Source: a virus
Taxonomy: Duplodnaviria; Heunggongvirae; Uroviricota; Caudoviricetes
Direction: 5' to 3' (one strand)
Length of the DNA: 5,045 bases
IMG/VR virus record: IMGVR_UViG_2671180524_000020
In this document: positions 2,940 through 4,877 of the stretch, in pieces
Position numbering within the stretch: position 1 is the first letter of the stretch
How the letters are laid out: every line of letters starts with the position of its first letter
Position numbers and translations under genes: made by a program
The notes under the pieces: model-generated
Told to the model about the DNA's origin: nothing
Databases searched by the model: none
The model's input: the letters and a program-made list of their open reading frames with translations, nothing else

Positions 2940-4877
2940 TCAGCCGCCGGACGCACTGCCGTAGTTCACTCCGGTGATCACCGCCACCGCCGCAGTACGG
3001 CGACGACGCCAGTTGATCCAGCGCTCCGCACGGATGGCCACGCTGCCTGTCTGGAACATGGAAACCAGCTCCACCGGGGACGGCGTGGTACTGTCGCCGC
3101 CCGGCTCAGACTGCATTTCCAGTGATGCCTCGCGGGACATATCCACTGCCACGCCGCCGTCATCCGCCAGATAAATATCCGGGGCATTCACCAGCACCAG
3201 CTGGTCACCCACGTACTGGGAGACAATCACCGGCAGCCCCTGGAAGGAGCCACCCAGCAGGGTCATGTCCGGGTATTCCTTCTGACCCAGCGCATTTTTA
3301 CGCATGGACAGTGCCAGGGCATTGGTGCTGGACATCAGCCAGACCGCACCGGTGGGCTGCAGGTTTGCTGCCACAAACTGTCCAAACGCAGCCTCGGCAT
3401 CCGCATCCGGGTTACCGGTTGATGCCGTGCCCTTCACATCATGGGTGATGGACGCCGGGGAGACATCTGCCACTGCGGCTTTTTTCGGGTCCACAAAGTC
3501 TGTATCCAGACGCGCCACCACCGCTTCCGCCAGCGCATTACGGACCAGTGCATCAGCAGCCGGACTGGAAAAACGGATCAATTCTTCCGTCAGTACCGCA
3601 ATGGCCGACACCTTCGCATGACTGAAGGTGATGGATTCAAAATCAAACTTCGTCAGGGGTTTTGCCTTACCCTCACCCACCCAGCCGGCAGCACCGCCGG
3701 ACACCTGGGCGTGCACACGGATATTGAATGGCACCTGACGAAGTGCAGGGATCCCGCCCTGACCAAATCGCCCGATAATGGTCTGCGGACGCAGGTAATC
3801 AATAAAGTCCTGTGCGTATTCCTGATATTCAGACAGGCTGCCTGCCCACTGCGGATCCGTGGTGGTCCCCGCGCCCACTGCCGATTTCAGGACATGATGC
3901 AGACGACTGTCATCCGGATACTGACGACGGGCCACTTCCAGGGCTTCAGATCGGACGCCTTTAGCCGCAGCCAGCGATTTGGCAAAGCGGGCGAAGCCAA
4001 TCCCCTTATCCAGTTTCTGCTCCACACGGATCACCGGCGCAGAAGCCACCGCGGCCACATTCCCGTTACCGGCCTGTTTCACCGGCTGCGCCGTGGCGGC
4101 CTTACCGGCTTCCAGTTCACGCAGGCGCTTCAGGTGCGCATCCACCTGACGGATTTCCGCTGCGGTGTTGTCGTAATGCTCTTCCTCCTCCACATCCAGC
4201 GTGCGCCCTTCCTCTGCGGCTTTGGTCATGACCTCCTCAAGGGAGGCTGCCAGCGCTGCACGCTTGTTTTCAAAACTTTTAATCTGTTCGCCAATATTCA
4301 TTATGGTCTTTTCCTTATGAAAAACGGTTGTTGACTGTGCCGCAGCGCCGGCAGAAGATGCGATTTTCACCACCGGTTTCCGGTTGCCGGACGCGGCAGA
4401 AAACGGGCGGTCGTAAGATTTAATGGTCCGGATGGTGCATTCCGCATTCGCGGGCACGGTGACGGCAGACACCTCCATCAGTTCCCAGCGCAGAAAATGC
4501 AGTCCGCCTCCGTCCAGAAAGGTGTATTCATGGGGACGGAAGCCCACGGACAGCCCCCTGACCAGCCCGGTCTTAATGGCCGCCCAGACCTCATCCAGCC
4601 GGGCAGCCAGTTGCGACGGCATATCCGGTACGGGCTTCACCAGTGTTGCCGTGATTTCCAGCCCTTCGCTGACCCGGCGCACCGTACACTGCCCCACCGG
4701 GCGGGAATGGTCATGCTGCCAGAGAAACGGGATCGCACTGCCAAACTCCGCGCCCTCCGGCTCCAGGATGTCACCATCCCGATCCGGAGAAGGCGTTGAC
4801 GCAATCCCGGTGATCACCCGTTCATCCTCACTGAAGGATTTCACCGTCAGCAGGGAACAGGCCCGTTTAAGAGTCAC
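2940..4877 (-). CDS. Prohead protease / scaffold-like coiled coil / HK97-fold major capsid protein in one ORF
   Basis: 645-codon uninterrupted ORF with GTG start at 4877..4875. N-terminal ~160 aa carry motifs I associate with HK97-type prohead proteases (peptidase S78/U35): GDILEPEGAEFGSAIPFLWQHD, GLSVGF, LMEVSAVTVPANAECTI. Residues ~190-290 are charged and helical (EQIKSFENKRAALAASLEEVMTKAAEEG...LKRLRELEAG), like a scaffold or delta domain. The C-terminal ~350 aa have an HK97-like capsid pattern (AAGWVGEGKAKPLTKFDFESITFSHAKVSAIAVLTEELIRFS; QGLPVIV...DMSREASLE). Confidence 0.88.
   Translation of the reverse strand: MTLKRACSLLTVKSFSEDERVITGIASTPSPDRDGDILEPEGAEFGSAIPFLWQHDHSRPVGQCTVRRVSEGLEITATLVKPVPDMPSQLAARLDEVWAAIKTGLVRGLSVGFRPHEYTFLDGGGLHFLRWELMEVSAVTVPANAECTIRTIKSYDRPFSAASGNRKPVVKIASSAGAAAQSTTVFHKEKTIMNIGEQIKSFENKRAALAASLEEVMTKAAEEGRTLDVEEEEHYDNTAAEIRQVDAHLKRLRELEAGKAATAQPVKQAGNGNVAAVASAPVIRVEQKLDKGIGFARFAKSLAAAKGVRSEALEVARRQYPDDSRLHHVLKSAVGAGTTTDPQWAGSLSEYQEYAQDFIDYLRPQTIIGRFGQGGIPALRQVPFNIRVHAQVSGGAAGWVGEGKAKPLTKFDFESITFSHAKVSAIAVLTEELIRFSSPAADALVRNALAEAVVARLDTDFVDPKKAAVADVSPASITHDVKGTASTGNPDADAEAAFGQFVAANLQPTGAVWLMSSTNALALSMRKNALGQKEYPDMTLLGGSFQGLPVIVSQYVGDQLVLVNAPDIYLADDGGVAVDMSREASLEMQSEPGGDSTTPSPVELVSMFQTGSVAIRAERWINWRRRRTAAVAVITGVNYGSASGG

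Follow-up and report, generated by a model that had tools for sequence, protein, structure and literature searches.

A conserved start site at the protease-capsid boundary of a fused phage head gene suggests a nested capsid product

Protease-scaffold open reading frames (ORFs) in which the scaffold is given an internal in-frame start of its own are known from phage lambda (C/Nu3), phage Mu (I/Z) and the herpesviruses (UL26/UL26.5). Here we describe a gene of related design found in a stretch of 5,045 nucleotides from a virus of the Caudoviricetes (IMG/VR record IMGVR_UViG_2671180524_000020), which as a whole is referred to below as the window. The gene is a single ORF of 645 amino acids that joins an HK97-type prohead protease, a scaffold-like delta domain and the major capsid protein, and for which a preliminary description of the sequence had proposed an internal in-frame start that could yield a scaffold-capsid protein lacking the protease. 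This proposal is now supported by the conservation of a start codon and a Shine-Dalgarno (SD) sequence at the domain boundary, by a dip in guanine-cytosine (GC) content and RNA structure at the same place, by the capsid starts of relatives with split genes, and by the position of residue M193 in an AlphaFold2 model. Altogether, we consider it about 80% probable that the gene is a nested one, which would produce both a 69-kDa protease-capsid fusion and a 48-kDa delta-capsid subunit in a way functionally similar to lambda C/Nu3.

As in lambda C/Nu3, the maturation protease occupies the N-terminal part of one ORF, an internal start at the domain boundary, as predicted here, would give a protease-free assembly protein with a common C-terminus, and the fused copies are proposed to take the protease into the procapsid. 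Unlike in lambda, where the nested product is a separate scaffold, the nested product would here be the capsid protein itself with its delta domain, and the expression of two products is one that we infer. In a Pfam search of the ORF, Peptidase_S78 (PF04586) was the sole protease family; neither ClpP nor S49 was matched, nor was any homology to the lambda C protease seen, so that the likeness to lambda C/Nu3 would be one of function and not of common descent. The gene resembles HK97 gp4/gp5 in having an S78 protease with conserved His and Ser residues and a helical delta domain of about 100 amino acids directly before an HK97-fold capsid protein, and also in that no separate scaffold gene is seen. 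In HK97, however, protease and capsid protein are two genes in the order portal, protease and capsid, whereas here a fused protease-capsid gene follows the terminase and is itself followed by a small ORF and the portal; the proposed nested product would be the equivalent of HK97 gp5. Another related design is the tripartite capsid gene of Gifsy-2, which reportedly combines a ClpP-like protease with a central region of about 200 amino acids, unlike the S78 protease and the HK97-like delta domain of the present gene. The two genes have in common a protease, a scaffold-like region and a capsid protein in one ORF of a lambdoid enterobacterial phage (Effantin et al. 2010, Virology 402:355, cited in PMC8538268). 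The same fused capsid-protease architecture has already been recognised in published annotations, which treat it as a single fused product. For a nested start in S78-capsid fusions, no description was found in the searchable part of the literature, and an earlier one may exist outside that part. Work on a protease-scaffold fusion in the context of the cyclic-oligonucleotide-based antiphage signalling system (CBASS) and phage Bas13 was uninformative for this gene.

The proposed initiation region and its product comprise the following features of the window:

4299 to 4301, minus strand: in-frame ATG within the gene (codon 193), at which the nested delta-capsid product is proposed to start, on the basis of conservation in homologues and of the start of stand-alone capsid genes
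4312 to 4316, minus strand: internal SD-like AAGGA (codons AAG GAA, Lys-Glu), 10 nucleotides ahead of ATG 4301, -6.2 kcal/mol
4260 to 4325, minus strand: AT-rich, weakly folding island, containing the lowest-GC windows and the least structured 70-nucleotide window
2940 to 4301, minus strand: proposed nested ORF for the delta/scaffold domain and major capsid protein, in the same frame and with the same stop, 453 amino acids and 48.2 kDa, predicted from the conserved initiation region

Codon 193 is indeed an ATG (4301 to 4299), which heads MNIGEQIKSFENKRAALAASLEEV and is itself followed by NIGEQIKSFENKRAALAASLEEV, and it stands behind the purine-rich tract that had been pointed out in the preliminary description (TTTCATAAGGAAAAGACCATA-ATG), in which AAGGA (4316 to 4312) can be read. 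The AT-rich island within a GC-rich gene was likewise confirmed: the ten lowest-GC windows of 45 nucleotides all fall at approximately 4318 to 4260, with 27-29% GC in comparison with 60% for the whole ORF. Moreover, the 70-nucleotide window centred on ATG 4301 is the least structured of 205 such windows in the ORF, with a folding energy of -6.6 kcal/mol (mean -22.4, standard deviation 5.5). The two initiation regions of the gene are of different kinds: the one at the 5' end has a GTG start, a stronger SD and more local structure (-16.3 kcal/mol), and the internal one starts with ATG behind a weaker SD and is almost unstructured. For this single sequence, the signal of composition and structure is exceptional and the SD is ordinary. 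The sizes of the two precursors, initially given as about 71 and 49 kDa, have to be corrected to 69.0 kDa (645 amino acids) and 48.2 kDa (453 amino acids).

The conservation of the start site in homologues, a test that had been named beforehand, gave a strongly positive result. DNA of 189 related loci was gathered from genomes, IMG/VR and metagenomes, and in 177 of them protease, delta domain and capsid protein are covered by one ORF free of stop codons. Among the 120 closest database proteins nearly all are fusions, 644-648 amino acids long, from Salmonella, Enterobacter, Klebsiella, Serratia, Pantoea and others. An exhaustive search of clusters at 50% identity gave 12,515 matches, the best 150 of which are mostly fusions of 630-680 amino acids with 38-54% identity. 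To judge from this spread, the protease-capsid fusion is real and old. Met-193 is invariant in 109 close homologues, and the linker before it is variable, with insertions and deletions. In each of the 163 distinct junction DNAs an ATG, GTG or TTG lies in frame 4-12 codons (mostly 4-9) ahead of the conserved E of an EQI motif, usually with an SD 5-10 nucleotides upstream, which is AAGGA or AAAGGA in enterobacteria and GGAGG in high-GC lineages. For quantification, the genes were grouped in 90 clusters at no more than 70% protein identity, an SD was accepted at -5.3 kcal/mol or lower, and windows of 12 codons from the same genes were used as controls, with these results for the junction:

Any start codon: 90 of 90 clusters (79 ATG, 9 GTG, 2 TTG); controls 52%
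Start codon with SD: 77 of 90 clusters; controls 9.2%
ATG with SD: 68 of 90 clusters; controls 4.2%

The junction is the top SD-backed internal in-frame start in 43 of the 90 clusters and among the top two in 58, out of some 37 candidates in each gene. In 86 clusters there is an SD core at a spacing of 4-11 nucleotides, distributed over the three codon registers (62, 14 and 10) and encoding at least 35 different peptides, which indicates that it is the nucleotides and not the amino acids that are conserved. In this line, where Val or Leu takes the place of Met at the junction the codon is GTG or TTG, and the codon ahead of GAG GGC varies widely (CAG, AAG, CGG, ACG, CTG and CCG, for Q, K, R, T, L and P) with a constant final G that completes GGAGG. 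The internal SD has a median of -7.3 kcal/mol versus -6.2 for the genes' own 5' SD and is the stronger of the two in 60 of 88 cases. GC content drops by 12-14 points at 0 to +15 nucleotides of the start codon across the 90 clusters, high-GC ones included, and local folding at the junction (mean z +1.8) falls short of the gene average in all clusters, with 90% of windows more strongly folded in 77% of them. Fused genes from gamma- and alphaproteobacterial genomes, and those on viral and metagenome contigs, share start codon, SD and the dip in GC and structure down to protein identities of about 40%.

A second line of evidence comes from relatives in which the two genes are separate. Split loci make up 9 of the 189, and in each of them the capsid gene starts at the homologous position. 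One split relative is locus L191 (P0253, about 52% identity), with the order terL, protease, capsid, small ORF and portal, where a 209-amino-acid protease with its own stop is followed by a 32-nucleotide spacer with GAGGG and then by a 465-amino-acid capsid gene that begins MNYAEQISAFETKRAA, homologous to MNIGEQIKSFENKRAA. In split relatives with the same gene order, the protease stop is followed by about 30 nucleotides that include an SD and then by a capsid gene beginning MNYAEQI at the homologous residue, Snodgrassella prophages are split likewise, and five stand-alone capsid representatives align from query residues 193-196. Because the capsid genes of split relatives start there, the internal ATG is to be seen as the homologue of a bona fide gene start, and by this comparison the fused form keeps that start in spite of having lost the stop codon between the two genes.

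The domain anatomy of the fusion is consistent with a start at this place. The complete gene is composed as follows:

2940 to 4877, minus strand: full-length ORF for protease, linker, delta/scaffold domain and major capsid protein, 645 amino acids and 69.0 kDa, GTG start at 4877 to 4875 and stop at 2942 to 2940 (ORF list and sequence, Pfam)
4883 to 4888, minus strand: SD of the 5' start, AGGAGG, 5 nucleotides ahead of the GTG, duplex energy -10.3 kcal/mol
4419 to 4829, minus strand: HK97-type (S78) prohead protease domain, amino acids 17-153 (AlphaFold2 with predicted local distance difference test (pLDDT) above 90 for about amino acids 20-150; Pfam PF04586; H55 and S110)
4302 to 4418, minus strand: disordered hypervariable linker, amino acids 154-192 (pLDDT below 50 for amino acids 154-189; insertions, deletions and variable sequence in homologues), with the internal ribosome-binding site in its last codons
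4002 to 4301, minus strand: delta (scaffold-like) domain, about amino acids 193-292 (AlphaFold2 helices 195-222 and 229-262, then a low-confidence segment)
2943 to 4001, minus strand: HK97-fold capsid domain, about amino acids 293-645 (Foldseek, Pfam PF05065, PDB sequence match 9d9w)

In the Pfam search, Peptidase_S78 (PF04586) covered amino acids 48-152 and Phage_capsid (PF05065) amino acids 386-635. Residues H55 and S110, which to judge from the HK97 protease family would be the catalytic residues, are invariant across 102 aligned fusions, and this same alignment was used for the AlphaFold2 model (mean pLDDT 86). As the PDB sequence search gave only a weak capsid match (9d9w), a fold search was needed for assignment of the capsid domain, for which the best Foldseek matches in the PDB were the capsid proteins of Bxb1, D3 and HK97 (E 7e-15 to 1e-10). 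In the model, M193 stands at the end of the disordered linker, two residues ahead of the first delta helix, and is placed where the N-terminus of an HK97 gp5-like protein would be.

Several observations weigh against initiation at codon 193. With -6.2 kcal/mol for its duplex with the anti-SD, the internal SD ranks only 8 among the 52 in-frame ATG, GTG and TTG codons of this gene, which on its own is not above chance, so that the single sequence cannot decide and the comparative analysis had to be relied upon. It is a moderate site (AAGGA at 10-nucleotide spacing), weaker than the AGGAGG of the 5' start, and elongating ribosomes coming from that start could occlude it. Moreover, no SD reaches the threshold in 13 of the 90 clusters, the counts are not independent trials because the clusters are related by phylogeny, and, since fused and split forms interconvert, part of the signal could come from split ancestors rather than from maintenance. 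This last point leads to the explanation of the site as an evolutionary relic, in which SD and ATG date from an ancestor with split genes, outlasted the loss of the protease stop codon and are now unused or irrelevant, with all subunits made as full fusions whose protease removes itself. The split relatives with a capsid start at the same place make the origin of the site as a gene start clear, and in HK97-type systems proteolysis of everything N-terminal to the mature capsid protein is expected, so that a fusion-only design would still yield a uniform mature shell. We nevertheless regard a relic as unlikely, because the fused state is dominant (177 of 189 loci, across 38-100% identity) and an unused site should decay like the linker that surrounds it, whereas all 90 clusters still have the start codon and 77-86 of them the SD, whose register and spacing vary, and low GC and low structure have been retained as well.

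A constraint on the protein alone could also be imagined, by which Met and the Lys-, Glu- and Gly-rich residues before it are kept for a cleavage site or for linker flexibility and merely mimic a ribosome-binding site. Flexible linkers often contain Lys, Glu and Gly, whose codons are rich in purines; K-G, K-E or x-E-G is encoded in the most frequent register (62 of 86), and a PGA(S/T)G-like motif farther upstream is conserved at the protein level. This explanation, a shade less probable again than a relic, is contradicted by the 24 of 86 SD cores that lie in the other two registers and encode unrelated peptides such as RS, GA, RN and RI, by the non-Met residues at the site, which are precisely the Val and Leu of the start codons GTG and TTG, by the codon ahead of GAG GGC, which changes its amino acid and keeps its third-position G, and by the dip in GC and structure, which is a property of the RNA. 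We give very little credence to the idea that the AT-rich island is an internal promoter or the recombination joint of two gene modules, to which ATG and purine tract would be incidental. It is true that the island is the lowest-GC part of the gene and sits at a domain boundary where modules could swap, but no sigma-70-like promoter was found across 2900 to 5045, the dip is centred 0 to +15 nucleotides from the start codon in 90 divergent clusters, as expected for an initiation region, and chance occurrence cannot account for 77 of 90 clusters against 9% in the controls.

According to the two-product reading that we favour, initiation at GTG 4877 would give the 69-kDa fusion of HK97-type protease, flexible linker, delta/scaffold domain and capsid protein, and ribosomes binding AAGGA (4316 to 4312) in the unstructured AT-rich island would start at ATG 4301 to give the 48-kDa delta-capsid subunit, the counterpart of gp5. 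As the delta and capsid domains are common to both products, their co-assembly into one procapsid is to be expected. The fused copies would bring the protease inside the procapsid covalently, replacing the non-covalent targeting of the free HK97 protease, and this protease would then cut off the linker and delta domains, so that the mature capsid subunits would all be identical. How much protease is made per capsid protein would be determined by the relative strength of the two initiation regions. What the analysis establishes is the domain architecture and the conservation of start codon, SD and an open RNA region at the domain boundary, and it is from these that we infer initiation at ATG 4301, co-assembly and stoichiometry.

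Other elements around the internal start were also considered. M217 was rejected as an alternative start: its SD score is stronger (-8.1), but the GAGGAGG lies 2 nucleotides from the ATG, which is too close, and the residue falls within a delta helix. A long-range stem between GCCGGCGCUGC (upstream) and GCAGCGCUGGC (downstream), with the start site in its loop, was discarded too, since the 121-nucleotide fold has a z of -2.6 in the window but is not conserved; with RNAalifold on 22 enterobacterial homologues this stem was lost and only a 4-base-pair upstream hairpin was kept. This hairpin, GCUG...CAGC, shows in the window a two-sided change that preserves pairing (GCCG...CGGC). About 40 nucleotides upstream of the internal ATG, at 4338-4352 (minus strand), the window has GCCGGCGCTGCGGCA, with codons for A-G-A-A-A, where enterobacterial homologues have a near-invariant GCTGGCGCTACAGCA (A-G-A-T-A), synonymous positions included. 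A PGA(S/T)G-like motif upstream of the start is conserved as protein in distant homologues. The motif at 4338-4352 may be a cleavage site or an RNA element.

All the genes of the window are on the minus strand, in the order terL end, the 645-amino-acid ORF (4877 to 2940), a small ORF, the portal gene (2728 to 1364) and a repeat-containing ORF. The protein of the fused ORF agrees completely (100% identity) with the 'major capsid protein' of two phages, Enterobacteria phage 2851 and phi330, and 93 phage records match it at 90% identity or more, mainly Stx1- and Stx2-converting phages. Moreover, 1,255 of 5,426 complete Escherichia coli genomes (~23%) carry the protease-capsid gene, in up to 7 copies per genome. 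Throughout the annotated records examined the gene is given as a single coding sequence, and in these records the nested 453-amino-acid product is unannotated.

A terminator-like hairpin with a T-run (GAACCGCTGCGGCGGTTT TTTTATTTTC) lies at 4899-4916 (minus strand), after the end of terL and ahead of the SD of the protease-capsid gene; it is the sole such site in 2900 to 5045, where shuffled sequences give an expectation of 2.0 on average. The small ORF between the capsid and portal genes (2674-2895, minus strand, 73 amino acids) overlaps the annotated portal start and has no Pfam match; this ORF is unannotated in phage 2851, and a 76-amino-acid gene is called at its position in the split relative L191. 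A conserved small head gene may thus be missing from annotations at 2674-2895. The terminal TGA of the portal ORF (2728 to 1364) overlaps the ATG of the next ORF, of 353 amino acids (1367 to 306), and both are united in phage 2851 as one 859-amino-acid 'portal protein' coding sequence (...KAMFRGDTEKMTERELS...). The protein sequences fit a difference of one G in a G-run at 1364-1400 (minus strand), which has five Gs in the window (...TTCAGGGGGATACTGAGAAAATGACGG...); this apparent one-G insertion or deletion with respect to phage 2851, as deduced from the proteins, may reflect an error of sequencing, an allele with a real frameshift, or slippage. ORF 1367 to 306 contains a tandem repeat at 775-1151, with a unit of 162 nucleotides in 2.3 copies (91% matches) encoding repeated ...PVPRDGRDYDPDVLQQAVNDAVANIPVPADGKSITPDDVRPMLEQMVKEAVSHI... 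units, and near its C-terminus a weak CBM_5_12 match (E 3e-4, under the Pfam cut-off). A run of 50 N is found at 201-250 and six scattered single N at 542-579, and this N-bearing part of the window shares about 93-97% identity with phage 2851, in comparison with 100% for the capsid gene, which points to sequence of poorer quality or to a mosaic joint downstream of the capsid gene.

Taken more broadly, it seems somewhat more likely than not, though less so than for the present gene, that the very large family of S78 protease-delta-capsid proteins, found in E. coli, Stx-converting phages and many other Proteobacteria, consists of single-gene capsid factories that use a conserved nested start. 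If so, a single gene would be the source of the shell subunit and of a protease tethered covalently, in a stoichiometry that the two initiation regions hard-wire. This would explain how tripartite genes avoid a protease on each of several hundred capsid subunits, a question left open where such fusions were annotated as single products. The internal start would appear to be a clean, general and unannotated feature of a common prophage gene, one that specialists may find sensible rather than shocking, and it would add an unannotated 453-amino-acid protein to a very common prophage gene. For gene callers this is a clear case in which a conserved internal start deserves annotation. The two ribosome-binding sites would moreover offer a predicted genetic handle on the protease-to-capsid ratio, which would be useful for the study of HK97-type assembly or for protein cages that load cargo by N-terminal fusion.

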